Source: a virus. Taken from it: a stretch of 42,847 bases of DNA. Numbering within the stretch: position 1 is the stretch's first letter; every line of letters begins with the position of its first letter. The stretch is from the IMG/VR virus record IMGVR_UViG_3300021446_000309. The stretch is one strand, 5' to 3'. Positions 1-42,847 of the stretch are shown in pieces. A model generated the notes under the pieces. The model had not been told where the DNA came from. It did not search any database and saw only the letters and a program-made list of their open reading frames with translations. The translations under genes were made by a program, and so were the position numbers.

Positions 1-55
1 TCGTCGCCAGTATCGTCGCCCGTGTCGTCACCGCTCGCGGTGACAGTGATCTCGC
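1..55. repeat. Terminal direct repeat, copy 1 (assembly overlap of a circular contig)
   Basis: 1-55 is identical to 42793-42847. An ORF reads in frame across the junction. Confidence 0.95.
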
Positions 56-131
56 CGCAGCTGACCGGGGCGCGACTCGTCGGTGTAGAGAGCTTGAATC
101 GGTCTTGTGAGCGCGTTAGTGTGCTACTCAT
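1..131 (-). CDS. 5' part of a junction-spanning 72-aa tail-anchored membrane protein (continues 42792->42705)
   Basis: Manual translation from ATG 131 through the junction: MSSTLTRSQDRFKLSTPTSRAPVSCGEITVTASGDDTGDDTGDEPTTTDGDTQALLLAGGGFVGLLLLLIVL*. GAACAC-TTTTC promoter lies about 30 nt upstream. Confidence 0.85.
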   Translation of the reverse strand, partial: MSSTLTRSQDRFKLSTPTSRAPVSCGEITVTASGDDTGDDTGD

Positions 132-172
132 ACGCCATCATCCGAGAGCGCCGATGAAAAGTGTTCCCCGGA

Positions 173-925
173 TCAGATACCGACCGCGAGAACCAACAGG
201 ATGACGAGTGCGATACCGCCACCGATGGCCGCCGCGCCGAACTGGGCGTTCGAGGGGAGCAGCACGTCGCTGATCGAGCAGTTCTGCTCGGTGAGTGCGT
301 CACCGAGCGTGTTGCAGTTCGGCTTCTCGCCCGAATCGTCGTCTTCGGGGGCACTGTCGTCCACCGTCACGACGACCGGGATCGTTCCGATGCTGTCGCC
401 CGTGTTCGCGTACTCGAAGACGTAGCGATAGGTGTAGTCGCCCGGTTCCGACGGGGCGCGCGCACTGAGCGACATTTCTCGCGTGTTGTCGGTGAGTGTC
501 GAGCCGGCGTACGCGACACAGGTGAGCTGCTGGTCGCGTTGGTTTCCGCCGGGACCGATGAGCTTCCCACGGATTCGGTAGCCCGGACGACCGACACCAG
601 CAGTACAGCCGTCGGGGTCGTTGATGATCGCGAGTGCGTTGTTCTTGATCTCGAACGTCGAGGAGAACTGAAGATTCGGTGGGGTAAACCGATTCACCTT
701 CAGTTCCGTCACTTCGACCTGTCCAGCGGAGACCGCAGACGCGCCGATAGCCGCCGTGTTCGACAGTCGCGACCGATCCCGAATCCGGGTGAGTGTCGTC
801 CGGCGGGCTGGCGACTGTGCCGACGGTGACGTCGTGGTGTCCGGGGGTGTCGTTTCCGCTGCGACAGCTTCGGCTTCGGGGGACGCCGCACCCGACCGTG
901 GGTAGGAGGCTGCGTGTGTGCTCAT
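173..925 (-). CDS. Membrane-anchored protein with Ig-like beta domain and C-terminal TM helix
   Basis: 250 aa; T/S/P-rich N-terminus, beta-rich core with Cys pairs, C-terminal AAAIGGGIALVILLVLAVGI. Confidence 0.7.
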   Translation of the reverse strand: MSTHAASYPRSGAASPEAEAVAAETTPPDTTTSPSAQSPARRTTLTRIRDRSRLSNTAAIGASAVSAGQVEVTELKVNRFTPPNLQFSSTFEIKNNALAIINDPDGCTAGVGRPGYRIRGKLIGPGGNQRDQQLTCVAYAGSTLTDNTREMSLSARAPSEPGDYTYRYVFEYANTGDSIGTIPVVVTVDDSAPEDDDSGEKPNCNTLGDALTEQNCSISDVLLPSNAQFGAAAIGGGIALVILLVLAVGI

Positions 926-927
926 CG

Positions 928-1182
928 TCAGTTGATGTTGACTCGCGGTGCACCGTCATTGCTACCGCCGCCGACCGTCGCGACGAGAAGGACGAGCACG
1001 AGGAGGGCGGCTCCACCGGCAGCGAGCACCGTCGGGACGTCCCCGACGAGGGGAAGCGAAACCGCCTGTGCGCGAACGGGCTGTCTGTTCACCGGTGGCG
1101 TGGACGTGAGCTGAAAGCGCCCCATCGCTCGGTCGAGGGAGCCAGCGGCGGCGGCTGCTTCAGCAGTGGTCGAATTGCTCAT
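928..1182 (-). CDS. Small membrane protein
   Basis: 84 aa with a TM segment VLAAGGAALLVLVLLVATVG; carries SLDRAMGRF; preceded by a CGAACG-CTTTTG promoter (1211-1222). Confidence 0.75.
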   Translation of the reverse strand: MSNSTTAEAAAAAGSLDRAMGRFQLTSTPPVNRQPVRAQAVSLPLVGDVPTVLAAGGAALLVLVLLVATVGGGSNDGAPRVNIN

Positions 1183-1239
1183 ATACGGCTATGCATACAG
1201 GGTATCACGGCAAAAGCGTTCGCCCGTCGAGCGTCGGCG

Positions 1240-2073
1240 TCACGAGAAGAAGCCACCGACCGCGTTCCCCACGACCGTCCCGACCGTTACCGAGACCGTC
1301 TGTGAGACGACTTCCTGCTTCAGTCCGAGGTCACTCATCTGGTCTTTCATCATCCGGCTGATCTCCCGCGACTGCTTCCGCAGCCCGGCGGCGTCCGGGC
1401 CGTGCATCGCGTTCTGTCCGAGTTCGGGAGCGGCGTCCGTGATGACACCACCGATGGGGACGTCTCCGGATTCGGTGAGTCGCTGGTACAGATCGTCATA
1501 GTCGGTGCGAAACCGGGCGGTGCAGTCTCCGAATGCATCACGGACGCGCTCGCGGGCCGCCGCAGGGTCGGTGATCTGTCCGGTCGTGAGTGCGCGGGCA
1601 ACATCGCGAGTCGTATCGACTTGCACACCGAGGGCTTCGCGGAACGCAGCCCGCATCGCGGCGTCGTTCGTCGCCTGAAACACGACTTCCGCCGACCGCG
1701 TGCCGACGACGATGGAGACGGTGACGTCGTGGAACGCGACGTTCGCGAGATCGGGGAGCGAGTGCTCGGCGTCCGTGAGCTGTGGCTTCGAGGCGTGCGT
1801 ATGGAACGCTCCCGTGCCGACGCGCGGGCAGCCGCGCAGGTCCACCGCCTGTGGGAACCGAGAGATCGGCGGCTTGGGTGTCGTGTTCGGCCCGCAGACC
1901 GTGCGGCCAGATTCGAGGAGTCGGCCCTCGCGTGCCGAGTCGAGCGTCTCCTCGATGATCGTTCGCATCGTCGAGTCGGACTCGCGCATGAACTCAAATA
2001 GCTCCTCGGCGTGCTGTGTCGGCGTTAGCTCGCCACTCAGCGGCGGGGTATCTGACGGGGTGAACGCGCTCAT
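1240..2073 (-). CDS. JAB/MPN-like metalloprotease-domain protein
   Basis: Upstream Glu (LESGRTV) plus FHTH-x11-SLPD resembles the JAMM E...HxH-xn-SxxD motif with a longer spacer; hydrophobic C-terminus. Confidence 0.55.
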   Translation of the reverse strand: MSAFTPSDTPPLSGELTPTQHAEELFEFMRESDSTMRTIIEETLDSAREGRLLESGRTVCGPNTTPKPPISRFPQAVDLRGCPRVGTGAFHTHASKPQLTDAEHSLPDLANVAFHDVTVSIVVGTRSAEVVFQATNDAAMRAAFREALGVQVDTTRDVARALTTGQITDPAAARERVRDAFGDCTARFRTDYDDLYQRLTESGDVPIGGVITDAAPELGQNAMHGPDAAGLRKQSREISRMMKDQMSDLGLKQEVVSQTVSVTVGTVVGNAVGGFFS

Positions 2074-2343
2074 GGGTGTAGATCGGTTGCTATCCGTTTC
2101 AATCTATGCAACGGAATGGGGTGGGGGGAGAAACCCACCCGACCGTTTCGAGAACCCGACCGACTATGGCCCGACTGACGCTCCGACGGAACCGAAGCAG
2201 AGTGACTGGCGAACGATCCACTCCTACACGGTGGGCGTCCATGTCTGCCACGACCAAACGCGACCGAGTAGGGGGCACACCCGACGACAAGTGTGCAACT
2301 CACACACGGAGTCGTGGTGGTTTCAATGTTTCGCGGGAGGGGG

Positions 2344-3084
2344 CTACTCGTCCCGTGGGGCGAACGAGACACCCTCGCGCTGCTCGATCCAGTCATCGCG
2401 AGGATAGTGTCCGAAGCGGTCGAACGCGCGGTTGAGCTTGTCCTTCCACCGGCGCATATCGTTCCGGACCACAGCCTTCGGCGCAGTCTCGACGACGCCG
2501 TGTTGGGCAACACGGTCGCGGAAGTCGAACTCCTCTTCCTGTCGAACAGCGGCGAGATCGGTTTGTGACCGACTGGTGTCGAACGGGCCAGCTTCGTCCC
2601 ACGCAGTCGCCGTGAACGCACTGAACTGGCCGGGGAGGTGCAGTCCAGCCTCCGTGCCGACGCGTTGGCCGAGGTCTACGAGTGCCGAGAGGCCGGGCAC
2701 GCCGGCTGCCTTCGGTCGCCCGGCGACCGCCGCAGTATCCTCGTCGCGGAACGGGGCGAGCAGCTGTGCCAGCGAGTCGCTGCGAAGCGGTGGCGCATCC
2801 GCATCAGCGACGGCGATCACGTCGTACTCCGATTCGACAGCGGCGTTGTGGGCGGCGTTGCGGGCCGCGAGCTTTCCCTCCGGTGCTTCGTGTACCTCGA
2901 ACCCGCGTGCTTCGAGGGCTGCCTGCCACGTCGTACACAGCTCCCGCTCGGGCGGTGAGAGTGTAACCCATACCTGTCTGTCTACGGTGATCCCCTCGGG
3001 CGTCGGCTGATTCCCCCATGCCCGGAGGACGGGGAGCATCTCCGGCTCGCGATACGCGGGAACCTGCAAGACAGCGCGGATCAT
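2344..3084 (-). CDS. Glycosyltransferase, GT-A fold (GT2-like)
   Basis: N-terminal VPAYRE, EGKLAARN and YDVIAVADAD (DxD) motifs. Confidence 0.85.
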   Translation of the reverse strand: MIRAVLQVPAYREPEMLPVLRAWGNQPTPEGITVDRQVWVTLSPPERELCTTWQAALEARGFEVHEAPEGKLAARNAAHNAAVESEYDVIAVADADAPPLRSDSLAQLLAPFRDEDTAAVAGRPKAAGVPGLSALVDLGQRVGTEAGLHLPGQFSAFTATAWDEAGPFDTSRSQTDLAAVRQEEEFDFRDRVAQHGVVETAPKAVVRNDMRRWKDKLNRAFDRFGHYPRDDWIEQREGVSFAPRDE

Positions 3085-4172: not shown

Positions 4173-5060
4173 CTACACCGACTCGGAAAACTGATCGAAG
4201 GTGTAGTTCTCAACACGACGTCGGACGTACTCGCGACACGCCAGACAGTTCGGGTGATACTCGCGAACCGTCACCGCCGTCGTCTGATAGTAGCCGGGAG
4301 GCCCCCGGCGGCCATCAATCGTCACCGTCTCCGGGGCGTGTCGGAGTAGCTCGCCGCACCACGGACAGACGAGTTCCATGTTCGTCGCTTGCGGCGCGAA
4401 CTGGTCGTACTCGTCTTTCGGGTCGCGGATCGCGTTCTCGTGGGGTGTTCGGTCACGGTGGAGTCGTTCGGGGACACCGCTGCCGGCAGACGGGCGCGGT
4501 CGCGGCGGCACGGGTGTCCCACCGTCGGTGACTGGCTCTGCCGTCTCCTCAGTGACCGGCGTCCCATCCTCGATCTCCGTGTCGTGGAGATGGTGGCCGT
4601 AGTGCTCCTCATGTTCGACTTGCACGAGGTTCTCCGGGCGATTATCCCACTCGATTCCCGACTCGTGGTGTATCTGATACCGCCCGTTCGAGAACACGTT
4701 GTAGGGGCAGACACCGGGGGCAGTGCAGCCGGGGGCTTCGAGACACTCCGGGTGCGGCTCGTCGCCGTCGTGCTGGCCGACAGCGAGTGCGAGGAGCTGA
4801 TGGGCATAACAGCCGCGTCGCGTTCCATCGGGGTCGCGCTGTCGGAGTTCGACGTAGCCGAGACTCGAATGGGTCGCGTAGCCGACGATCGGCGTTGGTG
4901 ACTGACCGCGATTCCGGCGTTCGATGCCGTGTTTCTGCATCCACGTTCGGATCGTGCTGGCTGCACAGTCCCACTGGGCTGCGATCTCCGCAGTCGTCTG
5001 TCGCTCGTCCCAGTAGGCAGCGTAGAGGCGTTCCGGGTCGGTGTACGGACGGTCGCTCAT
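4173..5060 (-). CDS. HTH-HNH endonuclease fused to a C-terminal Zn-finger domain
   Basis: N-terminal HTH (TTAEIAAQWDCAASTIRTWM); HNH core YAHQL...IHH..GIEWDNRPENL...H; C-terminal CPWC...CLAC. Confidence 0.8.
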   Translation of the reverse strand: MSDRPYTDPERLYAAYWDERQTTAEIAAQWDCAASTIRTWMQKHGIERRNRGQSPTPIVGYATHSSLGYVELRQRDPDGTRRGCYAHQLLALAVGQHDGDEPHPECLEAPGCTAPGVCPYNVFSNGRYQIHHESGIEWDNRPENLVQVEHEEHYGHHLHDTEIEDGTPVTEETAEPVTDGGTPVPPRPRPSAGSGVPERLHRDRTPHENAIRDPKDEYDQFAPQATNMELVCPWCGELLRHAPETVTIDGRRGPPGYYQTTAVTVREYHPNCLACREYVRRRVENYTFDQFSESV

Positions 5061-5953
5061 ACGGACGCACCTCGTTTCGTCTCGTAGAGGATCGAGATGG
5101 CTTCCTCGGGAGTCGATCCAGACGAACGAGCGCGGAACGCTCGAACGACTGCAGGATCACGTTCTCGCGAACAGCCGTCGCCGCACAACGTCATCTGCTC
5201 GTGTCCCTGCTTCCGTGCGCGCTGTTCCTCAGTTGTGAGTCCACTCCAGCCGAGTGTTCCCTTCAGTCCGTCATGGGTGATCGACTCCTCCCACTCGCGG
5301 AGCCGTTGGCCGAACTCGGGGAACCGTCCGAGTGTCTTCTGTAACTCGGAGGGGTCGCCGTTCGCGAGACAGCCGCAGTCCGAGATGACACCCGGCATCT
5401 CCCACAGCGGGTTCCGGGGGCACTCCTCGTGTCGGAGGATAATCTCGGCTCGTTCCTTCCGTGAGAGACGATGGGCCGGGTAGACTTCGAGGTGGCGGCC
5501 TACCTTCCGGGCCTTATCGAAGCCGGCGCGGGTATCGGACTCATCGGCTGCAAGACCCATCACCATCGTTGGATTCTCAGCGATGGTTGTGAGCTTCGAT
5601 GCTTGCCGGTCCTTCAGTTCATTCCGGACTTCCTGATGCGCGCCAGCACCCGGTGCGCCGTCGCGTTGCAGCCAGTCGCGGAACGACTCATCCGTGCGTA
5701 GCGTCCATAGTTGGACGTTGTACGTGTCGCACAGCTCCTCGACGTAGAAGCGGTTGAGTGGGACACCGACGCGAGTGTCGAGGTAGATGCCGAGAGGTTT
5801 CTTCGCGAAGTTGCCGCCGCTCTGGTCAGACCGGAGAGCGTCTTTCGTGAGCAAGAACGCAGCCACGGAGTCGATCCCTCCTGAGAGGCTCCAGAACCAG
5901 TCGGGATGATCGCTAACGTGGCCGGGTGCGCGCTTGCGGAAGGTGTCACTCAT
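5057..5953 (-). CDS. PAPS-reductase family / DndC-like PP-loop enzyme
   Basis: SLSGGIDS PP-loop, YLDT, GLAADES, NPLW...SDCGC. Start refined to ATG 5953 (ATGA overlap with the upstream stop). Confidence 0.8.
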   Translation of the reverse strand: MSDTFRKRAPGHVSDHPDWFWSLSGGIDSVAAFLLTKDALRSDQSGGNFAKKPLGIYLDTRVGVPLNRFYVEELCDTYNVQLWTLRTDESFRDWLQRDGAPGAGAHQEVRNELKDRQASKLTTIAENPTMVMGLAADESDTRAGFDKARKVGRHLEVYPAHRLSRKERAEIILRHEECPRNPLWEMPGVISDCGCLANGDPSELQKTLGRFPEFGQRLREWEESITHDGLKGTLGWSGLTTEEQRARKQGHEQMTLCGDGCSRERDPAVVRAFRARSSGSTPEEAISILYETKRGASV

Positions 5954-6714
5954 TCGGACCCACCTCGCTCTCTTACTCGTATTTCCGACGGAAACCAATT
6001 CTGTTGACGCTCAGTGTGCTTGTCGCAGAGCTGCTCACGGCGGCGTTCGGTCGTCCAGTTGACGGTGTGGGTGGCCGCTTGTTCGCAGTTCGTGTGGTGG
6101 CAGGTACTCGCGTCTGCTGGTTCCCCACCGTCGGCAACGATTTGTTGACGGTCGTTGTCCGGGTCGAACTTCGGCGGGACCTCAGCCATGATCTCGCCGG
6201 TGTCGGGGACGTCGAGTTCGTCGGGGATGCCGTCACCTCGACGTCGGAACCGCGACAGATACTCACTGGCCGTCCGATCACCAATGTCCATCAGTTGAGC
6301 GATCTCGTCTCGTCTGCGTCCGCGAACGTACAGCCACGCGGCGACGGCGGGTTTCCCGTCGACGGCGACAGCGACCGGAACACCGTTTCGCACTGGGTGT
6401 CGCTGCATATTCCCTCTGTCTGTGGTCAGATCGCTCCCGTCGAACTCCTCCAGTAAGACCGCAGCAATATCTGCACGATCCGGGTCATCGGCGGTGAACA
6501 TCGCGTCTATGCCGATGACGCGATAGCTACGAACCTCCCACTCAGAATCGGCGTTTCGTGACCGTTTCGCGTAGATCAACAATTCGTCGTCGTCTCGGAT
6601 GATGGGGGCGTGGGTCGTTGGAGTCGCATGATCGCCGCTGAACGTCAACAAATCGTTGAACGTCTCCATCGAAATCGAAGACCGGTCGATTTTGTCTGTG
6701 GAGTGGTCACTCAT
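5950..6714 (-). CDS. HTH DNA-binding protein with C-terminal Zn-finger module
   Basis: RRDEIAQLMDIGDRTASEYLSR HTH, then an ADGG linker, then C-x4-C...C-x2-H. Start refined to ATG 6714. Confidence 0.7.
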   Translation of the reverse strand: MSDHSTDKIDRSSISMETFNDLLTFSGDHATPTTHAPIIRDDDELLIYAKRSRNADSEWEVRSYRVIGIDAMFTADDPDRADIAAVLLEEFDGSDLTTDRGNMQRHPVRNGVPVAVAVDGKPAVAAWLYVRGRRRDEIAQLMDIGDRTASEYLSRFRRRGDGIPDELDVPDTGEIMAEVPPKFDPDNDRQQIVADGGEPADASTCHHTNCEQAATHTVNWTTERRREQLCDKHTERQQNWFPSEIRVRERGGSE

Positions 6715-6967
6715 CGTCAGTATCCTCGTTGTAGTCGCTTGGTGTGTACGATTCGCGAGGTTTACACGCCGCACAGCACAGGCAGTTATCCCGTCTGTCG
6801 TCGCCGGGGGCTGTGCATTTCTCGTAGACGAAGACGTGTGTCGCCTCGTTCCCGCACGGCGACGGTTCGTGGCCCGTCCAGAGCGTACATTCTCGACCGT
6901 ACTCGATCTTCGAGAGTGATACGACGTCGTAGATTTCCGGTGCGCGTTTGATGGTGTCGTCATTCAT
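6707..6967 (-). CDS. Cys-rich Zn-finger protein
   Basis: MNDDTIK start; C...CGNEATH...CCAAC; overlaps both neighbours. Confidence 0.7.
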   Translation of the reverse strand: MNDDTIKRAPEIYDVVSLSKIEYGRECTLWTGHEPSPCGNEATHVFVYEKCTAPGDDRRDNCLCCAACKPRESYTPSDYNEDTDDE

Positions 6968-7088: not shown

Positions 7089-7239
7089 AGGCGTTCCCTC
7101 CAGTGTTCGTGCAGTCCTCGCAGAACGCGAGGGTCACGATTCCCCGATAGCCACGATAGCTCTCGGTCGTCGCCGGGTCGTCTATCTCGCTTCCACACTG
7201 CTCGCACTGGTACGTCTCCGCTGTGGGCTGGTCACTCAT
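7078..7239 (-). CDS. 53-aa CxxC...CxxC micro-protein (not in the ORF track)
   Basis: Manual translation MSDQPTAETYQCEQCGSEIDDPATTESYRGYRGIVTLAFCEDCTNTGGNAYAR*. Confidence 0.75.
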   Translation of the reverse strand: MSDQPTAETYQCEQCGSEIDDPATTESYRGYRGIVTLAFCEDCTNTGGNAYAR

Positions 7240-8173
7240 CGTCGCGTCCTCCGTGTTGTGTCGTGTCCATGTTCGGTGATCGGGGGGTCACGCCGTCCGT
7301 CGACGCGGCTAACGTCTGTTGCTTTCCATCGGTGAACAGCGGTACTGTGGCCGGATCGTAGCTCAGATACAGCCGTTCGATCCGATCCGAGTTCTCCTTT
7401 GCAGCCGACCGGTTGTATGAGCGTTCGATCACAGTCCTCGCGAGGGCATCAAGCCCCTCCGGTGGGTCTTGATACGATACCATCCAGTGCCCGTCGACGT
7501 TCGCCAGCGTCTCCACGAGGCGGGCGTGGTCGAATGATGGGCCACGGTAGTAGCTGCCGTTTGCCTCGATGTACGGCGGATCGAGGTAGTACAGCGTCTC
7601 TGCGTCTTTGTCGTCGTACCGACCGAGAATATCGGCGTAGTCGAGCGACTCGATAGAGACGCCACGGAACCGGTCGCGAATCTCGATGATCCGCTCCGGC
7701 ATCTGTTGCCAGATACGTGACTTCTGCGGGCCGCGTTGTGGGGTATCTGTCGCGAAACCGGCTCGCTGTCCGTAGCGACCGCTAAAGCTGGCGTACCGGA
7801 GATAAACCCATCTGGCCGCCCGCTCGACGACGTTCTCAGGCCAGCCGTCACCGTTCCTGAACTGATCTGCCCACTCGTTGTAGGTGGTTCGCGAGAACGG
7901 GATGTTCCGCACCCGCTCGGCCAGTGCTTCGGGATGCTCACGACACGCGCGGAAGAACTCGACGATTGCGTCGTCACGGTCGTTGTATATCTCGCACCCT
8001 GACCGTGGTTTGTTGAGCAGGACGCCGGCTGCCCCGCCGAACGGGACGACGAAGTTGTCGTGTGTACGCAGATTCTCAACGATCCACGACGCGAGATAGG
8101 TCTTCGAGCCGATGTAGGGGAATGCGGAGAACGTCGAGCCGCGAGACGAACTGCCTGTGGACTGGTCGCTCAT
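7232..8173 (-). CDS. dam: Dam-like (D12 class) N6-adenine DNA methyltransferase
   Basis: FPYIGSK, VVPFGGAAGV (motif I), YNDRD and YYLDPPY (motif IV). The target sequence cannot be determined from sequence alone. Confidence 0.9.
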   Translation of the reverse strand: MSDQSTGSSSRGSTFSAFPYIGSKTYLASWIVENLRTHDNFVVPFGGAAGVLLNKPRSGCEIYNDRDDAIVEFFRACREHPEALAERVRNIPFSRTTYNEWADQFRNGDGWPENVVERAARWVYLRYASFSGRYGQRAGFATDTPQRGPQKSRIWQQMPERIIEIRDRFRGVSIESLDYADILGRYDDKDAETLYYLDPPYIEANGSYYRGPSFDHARLVETLANVDGHWMVSYQDPPEGLDALARTVIERSYNRSAAKENSDRIERLYLSYDPATVPLFTDGKQQTLAASTDGVTPRSPNMDTTQHGGRDDE

Positions 8174-8544
8174 CGGCTGTCCTCCGCGTATGGGTGGTCG
8201 GTGAGGAGGGTCGCGAGTCGGTCGGCCTCGCGTGCGATGATTTCACCGTGGCACGCTGGCTCGTCCTCGTCGAGTCGCTGACACCAGCACCCGAGCGTCT
8301 GCCCGGCGAGTCCTGCGATCTCCGTCCGGAACGCCGGGTCAACGCGAAGCCGTCGCAAAAACTCCTCGCGGAACAGTGTGAGAGACTCCTCGCGAGTGTG
8401 CGTGTCGAGGGGGTACGGGTTGCCGAGCCACCCACGGTCGCCGATTGGCGTCTTCGTGATGTCACGCCCGCCGGGACCACGCCCGATATAGACGTCGGTC
8501 GAGTCGGCTTTGCAGTGGCCGACCTGTGTCTCGTCGGGAGCCAT
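8170..8544 (-). CDS. DUF4326-family protein
   Basis: VYIGRG...LGNPY...LAGQTLGCWC...CHGEII signature. Start refined to ATG 8544. Confidence 0.8.
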   Translation of the reverse strand: MAPDETQVGHCKADSTDVYIGRGPGGRDITKTPIGDRGWLGNPYPLDTHTREESLTLFREEFLRRLRVDPAFRTEIAGLAGQTLGCWCQRLDEDEPACHGEIIAREADRLATLLTDHPYAEDSR

Positions 8545-8981
8545 CACTCGCTCCCCCCGAGCAGATCGTGTTTCTGGAGCCACGTCGAGGAGACTGCACA
8601 CTCCCGGTCTGTCTGCTCCAGTGCCTTGCGCTGTGCCTCAAGTGGGGACGTCGCCGTCACGGTCTCGTCCCATCCGACGCCCTGATCGCCGCCGATTCCG
8701 ACCATCGGAACACGGTATTCCCGTGCGGCGTCGTCGGCAGGCTCGCCGCCGTCTATCGCCAGTTCACCGATGTAGCGACGGCGTTTCGAGCCACAGTCAG
8801 GGCAGCCGTCGGAACCGTCGTCGAGGTATTCGGTCTCGCACACAGAGCAGCGGTACTCGTTCGGCTCAGATGCCGTCATGTCGGCGTCGGCATCTCGATC
8901 CGGAGTGTGGGTCTCGATGATCGAACACTGCTTGCACAGCGCGTTCCGGGGCGTTCGAGAGCCGCAGTTGTTGCAGGTCAT
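8544..8981 (-). CDS. Double Zn-finger protein
   Basis: CNNC...CKQC and CSVC...CPDCG, followed by an IDGGEPAD linker. Start refined to 8981. Confidence 0.7.
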   Translation of the reverse strand: MTCNNCGSRTPRNALCKQCSIIETHTPDRDADADMTASEPNEYRCSVCETEYLDDGSDGCPDCGSKRRRYIGELAIDGGEPADDAAREYRVPMVGIGGDQGVGWDETVTATSPLEAQRKALEQTDRECAVSSTWLQKHDLLGGSE

Positions 8982-9148
8982 CGGCGGGACCCACAGGAAT
9001 CGCACTTCCAGTGCGTGCCGGTCCAGCTGTGGAGCGTGTCGCCGCAACACCGCTCACAGTAGCACAGCTTTGGTTCATCGTCGGTCGGATGGTACGATAC
9101 GTCGTCGGGGGTCGGAATCGGGTATATTGGGTCGTCTGAGTTACTCAT
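8978..9148 (-). CDS. 56-aa Zn-ribbon micro-protein (not in the ORF track)
   Basis: Manual translation MSNSDDPIYPIPTPDDVSYHPTDDEPKLCYCERCCGDTLHSWTGTHWKCDSCGSRR*. Confidence 0.75.
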   Translation of the reverse strand: MSNSDDPIYPIPTPDDVSYHPTDDEPKLCYCERCCGDTLHSWTGTHWKCDSCGSRR

Positions 9149-29637: not shown

Positions 29638-29641
29638 CACG

Positions 29642-30631: not shown

Positions 30632-31534
30632 ATGGGCAATGAGTCACCAGAGACCGCGCTCGATAACCGACTCTCCGAGGTAGAAACCGCTATCGTCTAC
30701 GTCGAAACCCCGGCTGGTCGGAACGTGCCACTCCGCGTCGACGGTGAAGGCCGGCTCGTGACGAACCTCGATGCAGCCACGCTGCTCGAAACCGATCTTC
30801 AGGAAATCGGTGGGCAGCCACAGTCAGGCGTGGACGTCGCCGCACGGATCGACGCGCTCGTGGCTGCACTCGTCTCGAACGGTGGGGATGCACTGCGAAT
30901 CAGTTCACCAGCTCCGCTCGACGTCTCAAGTTCGGAGGTGGACGTCAATCTCACAACACAGACAGCATCACCGCTCACGATTACCGACGACGGCAGTCTC
31001 GCCGTCGCGTCGCTTCCAGAGCCACTCGACGTTTCGAGCGCAGAGGTGGACGTCGATCTAAACACACAGACGCTCGGGGCAGTCACGGTGACAGATGATG
31101 GGAGTCTCGTGCTGGATGCCGCGAATCAGTCCACACTCCCCGTGGAGCAGCAGTCCCCGGTCGGGATCGAGGACTCCACCGGTACACAGACTGACCCCGC
31201 TATCGCGACCGCGTACCTCGACTACCAGAACACCGGGTACGATCTGATCGCGTCCGGTGATCTCGTTATCGGCCCCAGTGCGGTCGAACGCGGGACAGCC
31301 GTCGTCATCGCCGCGTCGTCGGTAGACAACAACGCGTTCTCTGTCTCTGTCCAGTGGGAAGACGGGTCTGGAAACGTGTTTCAGAGCGAGAGTGCCGCAG
31401 ATATAGGCCTCGATAACGTCACCGAGGACTACGCTCGGCTGGTCCGGAAGGCTCCACAGGTTGAACTCACCATCACCGACGAGTCCGGGGCTGCACAGAA
31501 CAACATCAACATCCATACCGACACGGAGCGGTGA
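30632..31534 (+). CDS. Spike/fibre-like protein with a 36-aa tandem repeat and C-terminal beta domain
   Basis: PLDVSSSEVDVNL...TDDGSL occurs twice. Confidence 0.6.
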   Translation: MGNESPETALDNRLSEVETAIVYVETPAGRNVPLRVDGEGRLVTNLDAATLLETDLQEIGGQPQSGVDVAARIDALVAALVSNGGDALRISSPAPLDVSSSEVDVNLTTQTASPLTITDDGSLAVASLPEPLDVSSAEVDVDLNTQTLGAVTVTDDGSLVLDAANQSTLPVEQQSPVGIEDSTGTQTDPAIATAYLDYQNTGYDLIASGDLVIGPSAVERGTAVVIAASSVDNNAFSVSVQWEDGSGNVFQSESAADIGLDNVTEDYARLVRKAPQVELTITDESGAAQNNINIHTDTER

Positions 31535-31540: not shown

Positions 31541-32860
31541 ATGCCCTACGATCAAATCGCGAACATCGGAACGCCGGCTGGCGGGCAGGTATCCGATACA
31601 CCCTACCGCGCCCGTAAGACCGCCCCACAGACAGTCCAGTTCTCCATCGACCCCGACTTCCCACTCTCGAAGAAGCGGTGGTTCTACGCCTCGAATGGAA
31701 CGGCGTTCGATGCGACCAACTTCGACGGACGTCCGGGCGAGATACGGCTCTCAACGACGGCCACCGGGAGCGACACCGCCCGACTCCGAACGGCGATCTC
31801 CGGCGAGTACGTCTCTCACGCGCTCGCAGAGCCGGGGCAAGCCGTCCGTATCCCGACAGACCATCTCGACTACCGAACGAACGGCGGTGTGCAACTGACA
31901 CACGGGCGCATCATTTGGGGTGCGTTCACCTACGATGCTGCTACGAACAGCATCGAGAACGGCTTAGGACTGGTGATCGACAACAACGGTATCTCGGCGT
32001 TCCTCCGCAAGAACTCGGCTCACGTCAGTAACTCACCAGTGCAACAGGAAGACTGGAATCTCACCACCGTACTCGATCCCGGCGAAGGGGGCGGTACACT
32101 GTCACTGCAAGACGGACTGACGTGGAACGAGCCGTACACATGGTACAACGCGAATCCGCTGACCATCGGCTACGTCGACGCGCAACTCGACCGCCTCCGC
32201 CCGGTTCACCAGTTTCGTCCGGAGACGTCTCCCACGATGGGGACGCCGAATCTTCCGATTCAGTTCGTCGTTGAGAATCAGGGAACCGCCGACCCGCTGG
32301 AGCTGTTCACCGGCGGTGTCCAGTACAGCACGTTCGGCGCGTCACCGGAAGCGCGGAATATCCGGCGTACAGTCACCGGACGCAGTACGTCGAACAGCTT
32401 CATCAACACCGCAGCCGTCGCGAACAACAACGCAGTCGATCCGTTCGCTGAAGCCGGTGTCCCGCTACTCGCCGTCCGTCGTCGAGGGAGACAGACGATG
32501 CCGCTCAACACAGAGAGCTTCGAGATACGGCCAACGAACGACATCTACGCGTTTGTGTGGGACGAGTACGACGAGGGGGCTGCCCTCACCGGCGCGAACT
32601 TCAGACAGCCACACGGCGACAACACAGGCGTTGAGAGCCAAGTCGAAGTCGATACAGAGGCGACGGCGTACGCACCGGGGACAGCTGTCTTACGCGAGGT
32701 AATTCCCCTTCGCGGCGGTGACACTGTTCCAATCGAGTTCGCTGATGACCGGACTGGAAACGATGTACCTGATCGGGCTGCAAGACTTGTGACGGCGGTT
32801 CATCGTGGAAGCGGCTGTGATGTTGACCCGATTCGTGCGCGGCTGACTGAGGGATACTAA
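31541..32860 (+). CDS. Concanavalin/lectin-like virion protein
   Basis: 439 aa, beta-rich; ...QEDWN...YTWY...HQF...PNLPIQFVVEN resembles a widespread viral beta-sandwich protein. Confidence 0.5.
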   Translation: MPYDQIANIGTPAGGQVSDTPYRARKTAPQTVQFSIDPDFPLSKKRWFYASNGTAFDATNFDGRPGEIRLSTTATGSDTARLRTAISGEYVSHALAEPGQAVRIPTDHLDYRTNGGVQLTHGRIIWGAFTYDAATNSIENGLGLVIDNNGISAFLRKNSAHVSNSPVQQEDWNLTTVLDPGEGGGTLSLQDGLTWNEPYTWYNANPLTIGYVDAQLDRLRPVHQFRPETSPTMGTPNLPIQFVVENQGTADPLELFTGGVQYSTFGASPEARNIRRTVTGRSTSNSFINTAAVANNNAVDPFAEAGVPLLAVRRRGRQTMPLNTESFEIRPTNDIYAFVWDEYDEGAALTGANFRQPHGDNTGVESQVEVDTEATAYAPGTAVLREVIPLRGGDTVPIEFADDRTGNDVPDRAARLVTAVHRGSGCDVDPIRARLTEGY

Positions 32861-32919
32861 CGGCAGTCTACCACGGGAAACTGGCACACAGTAATAGTAT
32901 TCCAGCGTAAAATAGCAGT

Positions 32920-33900
32920 ATGGCACAAGAGAGAGTTCCGCAGTCTCCGAAAGTAGGCTCCAAACAGGGATATACATGGGGCGACGAACCCGCGAGATTA
33001 GAAGATCGGCTAAGTTACACAGCTGTTGCGTCCACCGACTCGAAACTCTATATTGTCGGTGGTCGGTCGGTAGCGCGCAATGATCCAACGCCGTTAGTAC
33101 AACGGTACGATCCCGCCGATAACACGGTGGAAACACTACAACAGATGTCGACAGATCGAGAGCGGGCGGCTGTCGGAGTTATTGATGGTAAAATCTACGC
33201 CGTCGGTGGATTCAGCGGCGGTTTCCCACGTTGGAAGGACGTACTGGAGCGGTATGATCCTGACAGCGACTCATGGACCACGCTTGAACCGATGCCGACA
33301 CCGCGAGATGGACTATCTGCTGAGGTTATCGACGGGAAACTGTACGCTATTGGCGGGCGAGACAGTGACAACAACGACTTAGATGTAGTGCGAGTATATG
33401 ATCCGGATAGCGATTCATGGACGACGCGCACCCCCATGTCGAACGCGCGAAAGAAGTTCGCCACGGGTGTCATCGACGGAGAGATATATGTTGCGGGAGG
33501 GGATCAAACCGTATACAGCGACCCCATACAATCGGTAGAACGATACGATCCCAAGAGTGATTCGTGGACGGCGCTGGAACCTATACCAGACCATTCAGAC
33601 GCCTCTAACGGCCCGTACTATCCGTTTGTTCATGGCGGTGCTGTCCTCAACGGAGAGCTGCACACAGTTGGTGGATATAATGCCAGCGAGAGCGATGAAG
33701 CGGATACAAACGTGTCTTCCGTGCAGTCGTACGATCCCACCACAGATAGATGGACAGAGAGACAGGCGTACTCTACCCGTCGTGCCGGTGTTGGAGTTAC
33801 AACAGTGGAGCAGACACTCTATGTCGTTGGTGGATACCCCTTCTACGAAGTTGACACAGAACAAGATGACATCATTTCATACTTCCAGCCGATAGCATAG
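32920..33900 (+). CDS. Kelch-repeat beta-propeller protein
   Basis: Six repeats of the form K(L/I)Y(A/I)(V/I)GG...V(E/Q)(R/S)YDP..(D/N).W. Confidence 0.9.
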   Translation: MAQERVPQSPKVGSKQGYTWGDEPARLEDRLSYTAVASTDSKLYIVGGRSVARNDPTPLVQRYDPADNTVETLQQMSTDRERAAVGVIDGKIYAVGGFSGGFPRWKDVLERYDPDSDSWTTLEPMPTPRDGLSAEVIDGKLYAIGGRDSDNNDLDVVRVYDPDSDSWTTRTPMSNARKKFATGVIDGEIYVAGGDQTVYSDPIQSVERYDPKSDSWTALEPIPDHSDASNGPYYPFVHGGAVLNGELHTVGGYNASESDEADTNVSSVQSYDPTTDRWTERQAYSTRRAGVGVTTVEQTLYVVGGYPFYEVDTEQDDIISYFQPIA

Positions 33901-33959
33901 AGCAATTCGTGTATAGAACTGGAGATTCGGCAAATCGCGGATTATAGCCAACAGATTTA

Positions 33960-33970
33960 CCCCCCCCCCC
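33960..33970 (+). repeat. C11 homopolymer between the TATA-like box and the fibre start codon
   Basis: ATTTA followed by C11, 13 nt before ATG 33984. Confidence 0.85.
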
Positions 33971-33983
33971 GCTATGTGTACGT

Positions 33984-34967
33984 ATGGCACAAAAACGGGT
34001 TCCTCCTGATGCAGTCTCAACCGACCCATTCGAGGCGACGTCGATTAAGTCAGAAGAAGGCGTCACCATCACATCGGATAAGACAATTACCTACGGTCGC
34101 GACCACGGTGCGACTGGTGATGGGAGAAGCGTCGTCATCGGTGTCGGTGCTCGTGCGCTTGCACCTGCGAACGATGTGGATGATCCTAACGGCGGCGATC
34201 CACGAAAAGTCGCTATTGGCTATGAAGCGTCGAAAAACGACGAGGTATTCGGGAGTACAGTAGTTGGGTATCAGGCTGCGCGAGATATTTCATTTAGTTC
34301 ATTCGATTCTGGCAGGTATACAGCAATGGGGTATCAGGCGGCGCAGTATGCTGACAATGAACGGATGGTAGCGGTCGGTTATCAAGCATCAAAAAATAAC
34401 ACTTCTGGAGGTGCTGTCTTTGGGTATAAAGCGGCAGAGGAAAACAGCGGAGGTTCTCTGACAGCGGTAGGAAACTACGCCGCACGGAATAACGCAGGAT
34501 ACCGCGTTACTGCGGTGGGCCGGAGAGCAGCGAATGAGAACACAGTACGGAGTGTCGTTGCAGTCGGGTTTAGCGCAGCAAACCGCAATACAGGTCGGTA
34601 TTCAACGTTGGTCGGAAACAGCGCAGGATACGACAACACAGGAGAGTTTAGCGTAGGGATTGGGTACAATGCGCTGGAGGATAACACTGGAAACTACGTT
34701 ACAGGAATAGGAATGAGTGTGGCAGATGGAGATGGCCTCGATGACACGATGACAATGGGCGACAACAACGTCGCTGTTGGATATAAGGCCATCCAAAATA
34801 ATCAGGCATCGGGTCTCATCGCCATCGGTCAATATGCTGGTCAAGATGCACAGACAGACGATCAGCTCATCATTACGCAACAGGATGGAACTCGCCGGAT
34901 GGTGATGGACCTGACGACCGGCGATTTACAGATCACCGGAACACTCACAGAGAACGCAGCACTCTAA
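33984..34967 (+). CDS. Beta-roll fibre/adhesin (YadA-head-like 14-aa repeats)
   Basis: Many (V/T)A(V/I)GYQA..NNT repeats with about 14-aa period. Confidence 0.75.
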   Translation: MAQKRVPPDAVSTDPFEATSIKSEEGVTITSDKTITYGRDHGATGDGRSVVIGVGARALAPANDVDDPNGGDPRKVAIGYEASKNDEVFGSTVVGYQAARDISFSSFDSGRYTAMGYQAAQYADNERMVAVGYQASKNNTSGGAVFGYKAAEENSGGSLTAVGNYAARNNAGYRVTAVGRRAANENTVRSVVAVGFSAANRNTGRYSTLVGNSAGYDNTGEFSVGIGYNALEDNTGNYVTGIGMSVADGDGLDDTMTMGDNNVAVGYKAIQNNQASGLIAIGQYAGQDAQTDDQLIITQQDGTRRMVMDLTTGDLQITGTLTENAAL

Positions 34968-34979
34968 GCAGATACGACA

Positions 34980-35264
34980 ATGACACAGACACTCACATAC
35001 AGCGGCGAGCAGACCACAGACGTATCGACGACACAGACAGTCATCGAGCAGAGCGTGGAAATACACACCGACGAGACGCCGACCGAAGTCAGCAGTGTCT
35101 CTCTCCGGCTGACTGACGACGGGGACGTCCGAACCATCATCTCGATCAGTGCGACCGGAGAGATCGAGGCACTGGAGGAACTTCGAGCACAGGTCGCACA
35201 GACAGCAGTCGATCTCGGCTTCGAGTCGGACGCAGAGACGCTTGAGGTAGACGTCGAATCATGA
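34980..35264 (+). CDS. Small acidic protein (possible fibre chaperone)
   Basis: 94 aa directly after the fibre gene. Confidence 0.6.
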   Translation: MTQTLTYSGEQTTDVSTTQTVIEQSVEIHTDETPTEVSSVSLRLTDDGDVRTIISISATGEIEALEELRAQVAQTAVDLGFESDAETLEVDVES

Positions 35265-35416
35265 CGGAGACGCTCACCATCACGGTCGGTGAACCGTACG
35301 CAGCGATGCTCGCAGAGCTACGAGAGATGGACGGAGCCGACCCGGACGGCGACCTGCGGGAGTTAGTCGAAGACGCGATCCATAACGGCTACCAGCAGTC
35401 GCAGAGCGAGGACTAA
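35261..35416 (+). CDS. 51-aa protein, RHH-like (not in the ORF track)
   Basis: MTETLTITVGEPYAAMLAELREMDGADPDGDLRELVEDAIHNGYQQSQSED*; ATGA overlap. Confidence 0.65.
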   Translation: MTETLTITVGEPYAAMLAELREMDGADPDGDLRELVEDAIHNGYQQSQSED

Positions 35417-35447
35417 CCCTTACACGCCTACGGACCAGTGGGTAGCC

Positions 35448-35933
35448 ATGGGCGTTGACCAACTTTCGGGCGGCTCGGGCGGTGATCCCGCCGAGTGGAC
35501 AGTAGATGCGAACGGAAATCTCGTCCCTATCGACGGTGAACCAGTCGGAGATGGAACGACGACAGCGGAGTATCAATCGGTCGATGTAGCTGAAGGAGTG
35601 GTGGTTGGAGACAACAGGCGTAATGCAGTCCGAGGAGATAGTTTCATCCTTGACGACCAGCAAACCAAAGCGTATGCCATCGGTGCGAACAATTCGCTTG
35701 TCTATCTTCAGTGTATTAGTTCTCGTTTTCACGCATTCGTCGCGCTCCGCTCCGGTGGCGCAAGTGTGAATATCTCGGCTGAGTTCGATCTTAATGGCTT
35801 CGGGTCATCCTCCGGACAGGCGGCGCACAATATCTACGGAAGTGGTGGCGACCTTATTGTCGAGAATAACTCCACTTCAAATGGACAACAATACCGGATG
35901 ATCGCTCTCGGAGATGCGGAGTGGCTTCTGTAA
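35448..35933 (+). CDS. Short fibre/receptor-binding-like protein
   Basis: N-terminal WTVDANGNLVPID; beta-rich C-terminal domain with lower GC. Confidence 0.55.
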   Translation: MGVDQLSGGSGGDPAEWTVDANGNLVPIDGEPVGDGTTTAEYQSVDVAEGVVVGDNRRNAVRGDSFILDDQQTKAYAIGANNSLVYLQCISSRFHAFVALRSGGASVNISAEFDLNGFGSSSGQAAHNIYGSGGDLIVENNSTSNGQQYRMIALGDAEWLL

Positions 35934-35993
35934 TCATGTGCTGACCACCGAGGCATACAGTGAAGTTCGTGCAAGTAGTAACTCAATAAATCT

Positions 35994-36407
35994 ATGAGCG
36001 ATACAGACGAGAGCACGGACGAGACGGTCGAAATGGGGACGATCCGCAGCTCCGCACAGCGACTCATCGCGTGGCTTCGAGGCGTTCTTACCGGGGATGC
36101 GAGCGCACCAGTCGCGCCTGTGTCGGAGTCCGACAGAGATCGAGACGGATTCCTGTCGTACACCGCCGAGTGGCACGCACTCAGTGTCGGACTGTTCGCC
36201 GGGATCACCTACGCCATCACCGGACGTGAGGCTATCGCGGGCGTCGTCGCTGCGACAGTCTTCGGACTCCGAGAGGCTCGCACAGGCCACATGAAGGACG
36301 TTCGGAAGGAAGCAGGATACACGGGTGGTGGCTTTCTCTTTGGTGTCGGTGCGGGTGTTCTCCTTCGTGAACTCACCGGGCTGTTCGGTGGGCTTCCCTT
36401 CGGATAA
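35994..36407 (+). CDS. Membrane protein, possible holin/egress protein
   Basis: Two to three TM segments; EWHAL...H.KD..KE..Y..GG; located at the end of the structural operon. Confidence 0.55.
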   Translation: MSDTDESTDETVEMGTIRSSAQRLIAWLRGVLTGDASAPVAPVSESDRDRDGFLSYTAEWHALSVGLFAGITYAITGREAIAGVVAATVFGLREARTGHMKDVRKEAGYTGGGFLFGVGAGVLLRELTGLFGGLPFG

Positions 36408-40228: not shown

Positions 40229-41284
40229 CTACTTAGAACCAAAGCCATCGAGTGACGACTGTGCCGGGTCGTCGGCGTCGGCACGCCGGGCGCGAAGTGC
40301 AGCATCAAGCTTGTTGCCGATAGTCTCGACCGAAGGCGGTCGTCGAACGCCGTCGATCTGGATTGTAGTCGCGCCGCGAGTCGCCTCGACGTCGAGTGTG
40401 TAGTCCTCGCCCAGTAGCGTCGTAAGCTCATCAGCCGGGTCGCCGCCCGTCGCACTCGCCGGTGCGGTCACGAGCAGCGAGTCACGGGCTACGGTGTCGA
40501 TCGTAAACTCAGGGTTCACCGCGCGAACAGTCTCGCGCACATCGTCCATCGTCGGGTACGCTGCTTCGATGAGTTCCGGCGTCGTGGTCGTCTCGCCACT
40601 GAACAGCCCGCCGAGGAGCTTCGAGCCGCCGAGTTGTCGCATCCCGAGCTGATGCGCGTAGAGTCGGGCAGAGATCGTAATGCGAGCATATGCACCGTCG
40701 AACGGCCAGTCAAGCCACTTGTCGCCGGCCCATATCTGTCCACCACGGAACGACTGGCGGATGATACTCGCGGAGTCGAACGAGGACGCGCCCGGAACGT
40801 AGTTCAGCCGGTCGAGTTGTGCGTTCGGTGAGCCGCCGAGAACGTGGACGTCGTGGAGTCGGGCGTACTCGGTGATCGAGTACGGCGCAGTGCCCCACGA
40901 CTGCTGTGTCGGGAGGCCGACTCGAAAGCGGTCTGGAACGTCCACAGGTTTCACCTCCTGTTTCGGCGTCACGACAACATCGCGTGCGTGTTCCAACAGC
41001 TCATCAGCGACCGTGTACGCGTTCGCAGCAGAGATGTTGCCGGTAATGTCGGGGGCGACAGCGATACGCGGGCGGTGCGCCTCACACGCCGTTCGCATTC
41101 GCTCGCGCGCCTGTCCGAAGGTGAGGTCTCCAGCCCGAATCGCACGGAACGGCCAGTCAACGAAATCGTAGTCGAATCCACTCGGCGGATTCGTTCCGAT
41201 CCGATACCCGAGGAACACAGGTGTCGCAGCGAGTGCAGATGCCGCCGGACGAGACCCCTCAACCGTGACTGCGAGGTCGGACAT
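40229..41284 (-). CDS. TGT/DpdA-like TIM-barrel protein (DUF6610-like) with C-terminal PIP box
   Basis: FVDWPF, AVAPD, DVHVLGGSPNAQ...SSFDSAS correspond to the H.LG...SxD motifs of guanine transglycosylases; C-terminus QSSLDGF. Confidence 0.6.
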   Translation of the reverse strand: MSDLAVTVEGSRPAASALAATPVFLGYRIGTNPPSGFDYDFVDWPFRAIRAGDLTFGQARERMRTACEAHRPRIAVAPDITGNISAANAYTVADELLEHARDVVVTPKQEVKPVDVPDRFRVGLPTQQSWGTAPYSITEYARLHDVHVLGGSPNAQLDRLNYVPGASSFDSASIIRQSFRGGQIWAGDKWLDWPFDGAYARITISARLYAHQLGMRQLGGSKLLGGLFSGETTTTPELIEAAYPTMDDVRETVRAVNPEFTIDTVARDSLLVTAPASATGGDPADELTTLLGEDYTLDVEATRGATTIQIDGVRRPPSVETIGNKLDAALRARRADADDPAQSSLDGFGSK

Positions 41285-41315
41285 ACGTCACTGTCGGGAG
41301 CACCACACTTAGAGG

Positions 41316-41675
41316 CTACTGGAGATCGCGGTCGCCCATGTACGGCGAGACCAGCACGTAACAGCCGAACGTGAAGCACACCGCCGCGAACAGGGCCGTC
41401 CACAGCCCCATGACCGCAGAGTTGAACGCGAACAGTCCCGCTAAGAACGTGAGGAACAGCATCGGAACGCCTGTGCCGAATAGATAGCCACTCACGTCGG
41501 TCCAGCCGATCTTCGCGGTGCGTGCTGCGTGCTGGCGCGAGTGTGTCGTGTCGGCGGTCTCATCCGAGACGCGAACCGCGATCACGTCGTCTTTCGCCCT
41601 GCTGTCGCCGTGCTCTGCGGGTGACTGTTCGGCGTCGCGATACGCGTACTTCGAGACCGGGTTGCGGTCGCTCAT
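41316..41675 (-). CDS. Two-TM membrane protein
   Basis: C-terminal hydrophobic hairpin. Confidence 0.7.
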   Translation of the reverse strand: MSDRNPVSKYAYRDAEQSPAEHGDSRAKDDVIAVRVSDETADTTHSRQHAARTAKIGWTDVSGYLFGTGVPMLFLTFLAGLFAFNSAVMGLWTALFAAVCFTFGCYVLVSPYMGDRDLQ

Positions 41676-42265
41676 GTCGCTGTCACATCAGTAACGTCGA
41701 TGGTGAGCGAGAGCGTCCGTTCGCTCGATACGGTCGGAGCAACGATGTCGATGAACTTCACGTCCTGCTCGCCGCTGCTGAGTGTGAACTGCTCCTGACC
41801 GACGACACTGCTCCCCAATGTCGCCTCTGCGGTCACGGTGAGCGTGGTACTCGTCTGATTCTCGAACGTCGTCGAGACGGTATCGCGTGCGCCCGACGAG
41901 AGGTTAGGTGTGTATCCGCAGCCACCGAACAGCCGAATATCGCTCGCGTCATAGGTCCGTGGCTCGGAGTCACCACTGCCTCCGTCGTCACCGCCGCTGC
42001 CTCCACCGCCACCGCCGGGGTCGCGCAGCGGTTCGTCGTCGGTCTGTGTCGAGGTATCCGATGACGTGTCCACTACTGACGTATCCGTCGAGGTGTCGTC
42101 GGTACTGTCGCTGCCATCATCGTAGTCCCCGATTAGATCGAGGGGCGACTCAGTGTAGTCGTCGGTGCTGTCGCCGCTGTCGGTGGAGAGCGACCCATCG
42201 GGGGAGATGAGTGCGCTGAAGCTGATCGCCTCGAACCGATCTTGCGAGCGTTTCAGTGAATCCAT
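41672..42265 (-). CDS. D/S/T/G low-complexity protein with C-terminal Ig-like domain
   Basis: Starts SLKRSQDRF; GGGGGGSGG linker; beta-rich C-terminus. Confidence 0.7.
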   Translation of the reverse strand: MDSLKRSQDRFEAISFSALISPDGSLSTDSGDSTDDYTESPLDLIGDYDDGSDSTDDTSTDTSVVDTSSDTSTQTDDEPLRDPGGGGGGSGGDDGGSGDSEPRTYDASDIRLFGGCGYTPNLSSGARDTVSTTFENQTSTTLTVTAEATLGSSVVGQEQFTLSSGEQDVKFIDIVAPTVSSERTLSLTIDVTDVTAT

Positions 42266-42274
42266 GATGATCCC

Positions 42275-42649
42275 TCAGAACCGACCCATCGCACGCCCGA
42301 CGCGTGAGCCGTCTACCTTCGCGGTGGCGAAGGTACTCGATCCCTCAGACGCGTTCGTGATCTGCGACGTGACTTGGATGTTCTCACCGGGGGAGGACAC
42401 CGTGATCGTCTGTGTCGCCTCGCGGGAGCCGTCAGCCGGGACCGTGGTCGAGGCAGTGGCTTCGGTGGAACCGTTCAGCGAGAAGGACAGCTCGACGTCG
42501 GCGGCCTGTGGATTGTCGTTCTGAAGCACCACATCGACAGTGATGGTGTTGCCGGCGACGATCTCGTCCTCTCGGACGTTACACGTCGAGATGCTCACGT
42601 TCGATGCGGTGAACTCGGGCGTGACCGTGATGGTTCCGCAGTCTACCAT
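42275..42649 (-). CDS. CARDB/Ig-like domain protein
   Basis: AGNTITVDVVLQNDN...VELSFSLNG...TTVPADGS.E; ends GRAMGRF. Confidence 0.7.
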   Translation of the reverse strand: MVDCGTITVTPEFTASNVSISTCNVREDEIVAGNTITVDVVLQNDNPQAADVELSFSLNGSTEATASTTVPADGSREATQTITVSSPGENIQVTSQITNASEGSSTFATAKVDGSRVGRAMGRF

Positions 42650-42704
42650 GCCTCAACAACGAGGGGCTATCGGCAAAACAGTTCTGGCGAACGGAATCGG
42701 GGGG

Positions 42705-42792
42705 TTACAGCACGATGAGGAGGAGCAGTAGTCCGACGAACCCGCCGCCAGCGAGGAGGAGCGCCTGTGTGTCGCCGTCCGTGGTCGTCGGC
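42705..42792 (-). CDS. 3' part of the junction-spanning membrane protein (starts at 131)
   Basis: ...EPTTTDGDTQALLLAGGGFVGLLLLLIVL, TAA at 42705-42707. Confidence 0.85.
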
Positions 42793-42847
42793 TCGTCGCC
42801 AGTATCGTCGCCCGTGTCGTCACCGCTCGCGGTGACAGTGATCTCGC
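42793..42847. repeat. Terminal direct repeat, copy 2
   Basis: Identical to 1-55. Confidence 0.95.

Follow-up and report, generated by a model that had tools for sequence, protein, structure and literature searches.

The window examined here, that is, the whole 42,847 nucleotides of the IMG/VR virus record IMGVR_UViG_3300021446_000309, holds a densely coded genome with a gene for a 402-amino-acid (aa) protein that is predicted to fold like the double jelly-roll coat proteins of tailless viruses. This gene lies within a long run of plus-strand genes, and the members of the run that matter most are the following.

16834-25215, plus strand: eight very acidic proteins (455, 197, 265, 742, 471, 68, 306 and 246 aa), described from their sequence
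25272-25736, plus strand: 154-aa protein, placed by synteny only, a similar-sized gene lying at this position in relatives
25748-26236, plus strand: 162-aa membrane protein whose gene immediately precedes that of the coat; it may sit in an internal membrane or anchor the capsid (sequence and synteny)
26338-27546, plus strand: major capsid protein candidate, 402 aa, double jelly-roll (predicted structure)
27857-28948, plus strand: 363-aa protein with two beta-sandwich (jelly-roll-like) domains, residues 18-134 and 183-301, a vertex or penton-base candidate (model and synteny)
28945-29637, plus strand: 230-aa protein, beta-rich in its C-terminal half, possibly a minor capsid or vertex protein (homology and synteny)
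29642-30061 and 30157-30558, plus strand: two paralogous small beta-rich proteins of 139 and 133 aa (jackhmmer, 2e-63)
30608-31534, plus strand: 308-aa fibre-like protein with repeated PLDVSS-EVDV units (sequence, with a weak Adeno_shaft hint)
31541-32860, plus strand: 439-aa protein, a spike or vertex candidate (phrog_1645, 'virion structural protein', of Halogranum tailed virus 1, HGTV-1)
32920-33900, plus strand: Kelch beta-propeller, a candidate receptor-binding protein (family scan)
33984-34967, plus strand: tail-spike-like protein, a candidate receptor-binding protein (family scan)

The first 55 bases of the window (1-55) are repeated as its last 55 (42793-42847), which is an assembly overlap, and this terminal repeat implies a closed circle with a unit of 42,792 bp. 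Two other contigs support closure. The coat protein is also recorded on a contig of 42,933 bp, and the excess of 141 over the unit is the circular overlap expected of a k=141 assembler. A 38,612-bp Logan contig (run X1) spans the junction, as it maps from 33960 to the end and then from 1 to 29779 (8,833 + 29,779 = 38,612). Coding regions, 64 in all, take up 90% of the circle, and a 72-aa minus-strand open reading frame (ORF) crosses the junction. The closed, gene-packed genome described in the first-pass annotation of this DNA is thus borne out.

The G+C content is about 63% overall, with a dip to 52-56% at about 32-36 kb. The median isoelectric point (pI) of the proteins is 4.7, and 45 of the 64 are below pI 5; a low protein pI is a signature of 'salt-in' halophiles. 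The sequence is present in halite and rock metagenomes of several studies. From the base composition, the acidic proteins, the halite source and the genes shared with haloarchaeal tailed viruses, we infer that the hosts are halophilic archaea. Scans for tRNAs and Rfam families gave no match in the genome, nor did a megablast search of 16000-37000 against 50,697 phage records.

The 402-aa protein has the highest codon-usage score per residue in the genome and is rich in beta-strand-forming residues. Its 15 relatives at 45-53% identity are all unannotated metagenome proteins. An AlphaFold2 model built from the alignment of these relatives has a predicted local distance difference test score (pLDDT) of 84.5 and a predicted template modelling score of 0.84. 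The top Foldseek match to this model in the PDB is the coat protein of Sulfolobus turreted icosahedral virus (STIV; 2bbd_A, E 7.6e-5, probability 1.0), followed by the coat proteins of PBCV-1, PRD1/PR772 (P3) and PM2 (P2), and a structure search of BFVD agrees with this result. On the model, therefore, the fold is that of a double jelly-roll, as in PRD1 P3, the STIV major capsid protein and the PM2 coat. The resemblance is one of predicted structure: searches found no sequence similarity of the coat protein to viruses of the STIV/PRD1/PM2 type, its profile gave nothing useful against PDB sequences, and a fold search of the ESM Atlas with the model returned noise only. Cellular enzymes of the GH172/DUF2961 type, which are also double jelly-rolls, have structural Z scores against the model on a par with those of the viral coat proteins, so the fold alone cannot settle whether the protein is a coat or an enzyme. 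The genomic context favours a coat protein.

Of the features that mark viruses of the Bamfordvirae type, the double jelly-roll major capsid protein is present here as a predicted fold, and the FtsK/HerA (A32-like) packaging ATPase, which most but not all members possess, was not found. The first-pass annotation had held that the genome lacks every expected hallmark. This can no longer be said, because a capsid hallmark does lie at 26338-27546, although it is visible by structure only. With a capsid of this type, the absence of a terminase, portal, HK97 capsid and tail is to be expected.

The 63 ORFs scanned against Pfam, PHROGs and NCBIfam, most of them also singly, gave no family match to a terminase, portal, HK97 capsid or tape measure protein, and none to an integrase, DNA polymerase, primase, helicase or ATPase. 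The Walker A pattern [AG]xxxxGK[ST] does not occur in any of the six frames, and relaxed P-loop patterns found no plausible candidate across the genome; the sole nucleotide-binding loop in the relaxed scan was the PP-loop SGGIDS of a PAPS-reductase-like protein. These three libraries of hidden Markov models (HMMs) and the six-frame scan confirm the earlier list of missing engine genes. The statement that there are no tail genes holds in part, in that a tape measure is absent, while tail-spike-, fibre- and 'virion structural protein'-like genes are present at 31541-34967. The anomaly therefore narrows to one point: a 43-kb double-stranded (ds) DNA genome without a packaging ATPase or any P-loop NTPase.

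One motif deserves mention. The LSGKS of the 363-aa protein was considered as a Walker A motif and rejected, as it lies in a beta-rich domain with no preceding hydrophobic strand or glycine-rich loop. The motif L-x-GK[ST] (residues 181-185) is conserved in all homologues of this protein.

The coat gene was also followed into 14 related metagenomic loci, 195 kb read around the gene and 39-67% in G+C, with no contig of a relative read to more than about half of its length; the relatives of the 27857 and 21927 proteins were taken from the genes neighbouring the coat gene on these contigs. The coat gene is in all 14 loci, and the upstream membrane protein, a small ORF downstream of the coat gene and a protein of the 27857 type are in many of them. 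The 162-aa membrane protein is 52-56% identical in relatives and is always in the same position. The 363-aa protein is conserved in L001, L002, L007 and L009, and distantly in L010, a locus of 43% G+C; behind the 27857-type gene, L001, L007 and L009 have a distant homologue of the 230-aa protein. No packaging ATPase was found around the coat gene in the 195 kb, and no precomputed Pfam ATPase adjoins it in relatives. The single credible P-loop ORF in these loci, of AAA_24-like type, belongs to L011, where its neighbours are genes of recombination and replication. Thus, the missing motor is a family trait around the coat gene, and the earlier remark that no motor is recognisable extends from this genome to its relatives.

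An exhaustive profile search recovered 116 coat-family clusters at 50% identity, none of which is named. Most of them consist of non-acidic proteins, and so the coat family extends far beyond halophiles. A pattern scan of 185,579 GTDB species genomes confirmed no relative of the coat protein, and tblastn found none among phages and 72,556 plasmids. As the gene is on mobile-element-like contigs only and absent from the species genomes scanned, it would seem to be mobile rather than cellular. A pattern scan of the 2.9 million viral contigs in IMG/VR also confirmed no coat-protein relative, and yet related 42-kb contigs do exist in JGI metagenomes. Hallmark-based virus detection appears to be blind to this lineage.

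The closest precedent is the Odin group of Yutin et al. (2018), which was compared by description rather than by alignment of the coat and upstream-gene sequences. Together with the single-stranded DNA phage FLiP, this metagenomic group is a described exception among double jelly-roll viruses in having no ATPase (PMC5894146; PMC8328091). Its genomes are 7-11 kb with a small conserved gene directly upstream of the coat gene, and, because they are so small, assembly around the genome has been proposed for them (PMC5894146). The likenesses include a predicted coat fold nearest to STIV and PM2, the absence of an ATPase, a small conserved gene just before that of the coat, a candidate minor protein of the jelly-roll type and a record confined to metagenomes. 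There are also differences: the genome here is 42,792 bp and comes from hypersaline rock, whereas the Odin genomes come from marine sediments. The Odin ParB and PD-(D/E)XK nucleases have no counterpart here in the Pfam, PHROGs and NCBIfam scans, and the upstream gene here encodes a membrane protein.

Other tailless groups fit less well. STIV (Turriviridae), PRD1 and PM2 (Tectiviridae/Corticoviridae) are tailless, inner-membrane, double jelly-roll viruses that have an FtsK/HerA (A32-like) ATPase beside the capsid genes and genomes of 10-18 kb, and neither of these two traits applies here. The Halopanivirales (SH1, HHIV-2, HCIV-1 and SNJ1) are viruses of hypersaline habitats with the same probable host group, and like them the present virus would probably have an inner membrane and spikes at its vertices. 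However, they have two single jelly-roll major capsid proteins and an A32-like ATPase, and here there is one fused double jelly-roll and no ATPase. The genome is therefore not SH1/SNJ1-like. The coat proteins of SH1, HHIV-2 and SNJ1 match only halves of the coat model, and no PHROG match linked the proteins of this genome to those of Halopanivirales.

Taken together, these observations suggest that the window is probably the complete circular dsDNA genome of a tailless icosahedral haloarchaeal virus with a double jelly-roll coat, no virus-encoded packaging motor and, probably, an internal membrane. The membrane is hinted at, indirectly, by the conserved membrane-protein genes adjoining the coat gene. 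The earlier suggestion of a tailless, membrane-containing virus of an unusual lineage is largely borne out, the membrane as a probability, as it now has both the coat protein and the membrane protein just upstream behind it. A broader proposal, to which we give an even chance, is that the genome represents a previously undescribed double jelly-roll lineage of family level or higher, the first for haloarchaea, with dsDNA genomes of the 40-kb class that lack P-loop NTPases and are encapsidated without a virus-encoded ATP-driven motor, and that is absent from IMG/VR and Pfam. The lineage would comprise at least 15 close coat relatives from hypersaline metagenomes, together with some 100 more distant clusters (50% identity) on contigs of 39-47% G+C. 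Full-text literature searches turned up no description of double jelly-roll viruses of haloarchaea.

A virus of this kind might work as follows. Trimers of the coat protein would assemble on a vesicle carrying virus-encoded membrane proteins, and the jelly-roll proteins and spikes would make up the fivefold vertices and attach to the host. Replication would fall to the host replisome, given that no replication protein was recognised in the genome. The genome would be enclosed without a virus-encoded FtsK/HerA motor, either because shell and membrane form around condensed DNA, a route suggested earlier for the Odin and FLiP groups, or with the help of a borrowed host ATPase. The eight acidic helical proteins of 16834-25215 would be the best candidates for helpers in this step, possibly with an internal, scaffold or genome-condensing role.

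By eye, these eight proteins are mostly helical, of low complexity and poorly conserved, and none has a family, PDB-sequence or Atlas match. The 16834, 19702 and 21927 proteins gave nothing useful against PDB sequences, Atlas feature searches with the 21927 and 19702 proteins found no usable match, and tblastn of the 742-aa protein against phages found none. The Atlas model of the 742-aa protein (19702) is disordered, with a pLDDT of 0.41. The genes at 21927-23342 and 23551-24471 are conserved in relatives. The first gene had been started at 16414, which yields an implausible Arg/Cys-rich N-terminus, and the ATG at 16834 is the more likely start. The largest non-coding gap of the genome (16116-16833, 718 bp) lies just before it, between divergent transcription units.

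Several points weigh against the proposal of a motor-less virus. The evidence is entirely computational, and the virus is known from genes alone. Motor-less co-assembly was proposed for genomes of 7-11 kb, and 43 kb is four times larger. For no relative was more than about half of the contig read, and so an ATPase distant from the coat gene could be missed. The model of the 363-aa vertex candidate is weak (pLDDT 60.9), and its structure matches have ordinary jelly-roll scores. Finally, the eight acidic proteins could hide an unconventional motor without a P-loop. This last point leads to a rival explanation that we regard as unlikely, namely, that this is a double jelly-roll virus with a motor, either a novel non-P-loop protein in 16834-25215 or one that the host or a helper virus provides in trans. 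The dsDNA viruses of such genome size normally pump DNA into preformed shells (PMC5894146), and there are eight sizeable proteins without assigned function upstream of the capsid module, including the two conserved in relatives. However, none of the eight has a common nucleotide-binding motif, and their acidity, low complexity, poor conservation and, for the 742-aa protein, predicted disorder also count against it.

It is quite unlikely, in our estimate, that the window is a plasmid or another kind of mobile element, perhaps travelling in membrane vesicles, and that the 402-aa protein is a GH172/DUF2961-like enzyme or a surface lectin. Such an element would account for the tie in structural score, for the many membrane and carbohydrate-binding-type proteins (Kelch here, PKD and beta-helix proteins in relatives) and for the lack of a relative in IMG/VR. 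Against it, Pfam DUF2961 has no match in the coat protein or in 86 relatives, and the coat protein was not found in the species genomes or plasmids searched. There is also no plasmid replication or partition gene; ParA in particular would carry a P-loop, and the genome has none. The conserved synteny with jelly-roll proteins, fibre or spike genes and a homologue of an HGTV-1 virion protein likewise favours a virus. That virus could in principle be of the head-tail type, its terminase, portal and HK97 capsid diverged past profile detection and the double jelly-roll serving as a tail or decoration protein. The tail-spike-like and 'virion structural protein' matches to tailed haloarchaeal viruses, the DNA-modification genes shared with haloarchaeal myoviruses and the similar double beta-barrel of some minor tail proteins in BFVD would fit. 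This reading is nevertheless very improbable: the HK97 capsid, portal and large terminase of Caudoviricetes were not found by the three HMM libraries, there is no P-loop in any frame, the proteins of 16834-25215 being judged by sequence only, and there is no tape-measure-sized gene. Moreover, the most conserved and best codon-adapted structural gene encodes the double jelly-roll protein.

If the proposal of a motor-less double jelly-roll virus is correct, it bears on two questions. To our knowledge, every known tailless icosahedral virus of haloarchaea builds its coat from two single jelly-roll proteins; a haloarchaeal lineage with a fused double jelly-roll would close a gap in the spread of this ancient capsid type over the archaea. 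In addition, no protein accompanies the double jelly-roll coat protein more steadily than the packaging ATPase. That the Odin group and FLiP lack it has been attributed to their very small genomes, an explanation that a 43-kb dsDNA genome without a P-loop NTPase would remove, and motor-less or host-driven packaging would become a testable question. Hallmark-based virus callers miss contigs of this type, which may make up some of the sequences without hallmark genes that have been reported from hypersaline viromes (PMC13600414). An early study of a halite metagenome described large viral circles for which, apart from a few HGTV-1-like proteins, hardly any homologue was known (bioRxiv 10.1101/029934), and these circles may be the same kind of element.

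The genes around and beyond the coat gene display some further patterns. A 1,224-nucleotide contig from a halite RNA-seq library covers 25291-26511 with 29 mismatches, running from the 154-aa gene through that of the membrane protein into the first part of the coat gene. This contig hints at natural transcription of the capsid module, with carry-over of DNA as another possible source. In run X3, a halite metagenome of another study, a strain that is about 95% identical elsewhere has 27844-30806 replaced by 4,197 unrelated letters. The swapped stretch runs from the two-jelly-roll protein and its 230-aa partner through both small paralogues into the beginning of the fibre gene, and it looks like an exchanged vertex or spike cassette. 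The fall in G+C content to 52-56% at 32000-36000 coincides with the Kelch gene, the tail-spike-like gene and the small genes that follow, which fits recently exchanged receptor-binding genes. The 31541 and 33984 proteins gave nothing useful against PDB sequences.

The remaining recognisable genes lie on either side of the junction and include the following.

173-925, minus strand: C-terminally anchored 250-aa protein
928-1182, minus strand: 84-aa membrane protein
1240-2073, minus strand: 277-aa protein
2344-3084, minus strand: 246-aa protein with a weak glycosyl/nucleotidyl-transferase signal
4173-5060, minus strand: HNH endonuclease (family scan)
5057-5998, minus strand: PAPS-reductase-like PP-loop protein (family scan, SGGIDS)
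5950-6963, minus strand: helix-turn-helix protein (family scan)
7232-8173, minus strand: Dam-type N6-adenine methyltransferase (family scan)
8170-8601, minus strand: DUF4326 protein (family scan)
8544-9050: zinc ribbon protein (family scan)
40229-41284, minus strand: DUF6610 (DpdA4-type) protein, a candidate DNA guanine transglycosylase inserting 7-deazaguanine (Pfam)
42275-42649, minus strand: 124-aa protein with relatives in L004 and L008
42705-42792 and 1-131, minus strand: 72-aa membrane protein across the junction, with relatives in L004 and L008

The four proteins of 173-3084 are conserved across the family, and their counterparts, like those of the genes at 42275-131, flank the coat gene in relatives. 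The DUF6610 protein scores 96.4 bits against PF20314 (gathering cut-off 27) and shares 42-43% identity with proteins from myoviruses of Halorubrum and Haloarcula. This family has been renamed DpdA4, an archaeal-virus subgroup of the DNA guanine transglycosylases that insert 7-deazaguanine (bioRxiv 10.1101/2023.04.13.536721). A genome scan with the DpdA4 protein gave no match. Judged from their families, this protein, the Dam methylase and the PAPS-reductase-like protein point to DNA modification against host restriction. No genes for preQ0 or preQ1 synthesis were found in the genome, and so the base would have to come from the archaeosine pathway of the host.

Accessory genes vary among the relatives, and the neighbours of the coat gene there include integrases, methylases, HNH proteins, VapBC, a PrimPol-type protein and a histone. 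For example, tyrosine integrases are encoded at L001:395-1291 and L007:2748-3644, and the genome described here has no integrase. A 1,209-aa protein with a faint Prim-Pol match, also without a counterpart here, is encoded at L007:1-1564. A VapBC toxin-antitoxin pair adjoins the coat gene at L004:11341-11968, and a histone-fold protein is encoded at L013:3351-3590. The integrases and the histone-fold protein imply that some members of the family are probably temperate and that their hosts are archaeal.

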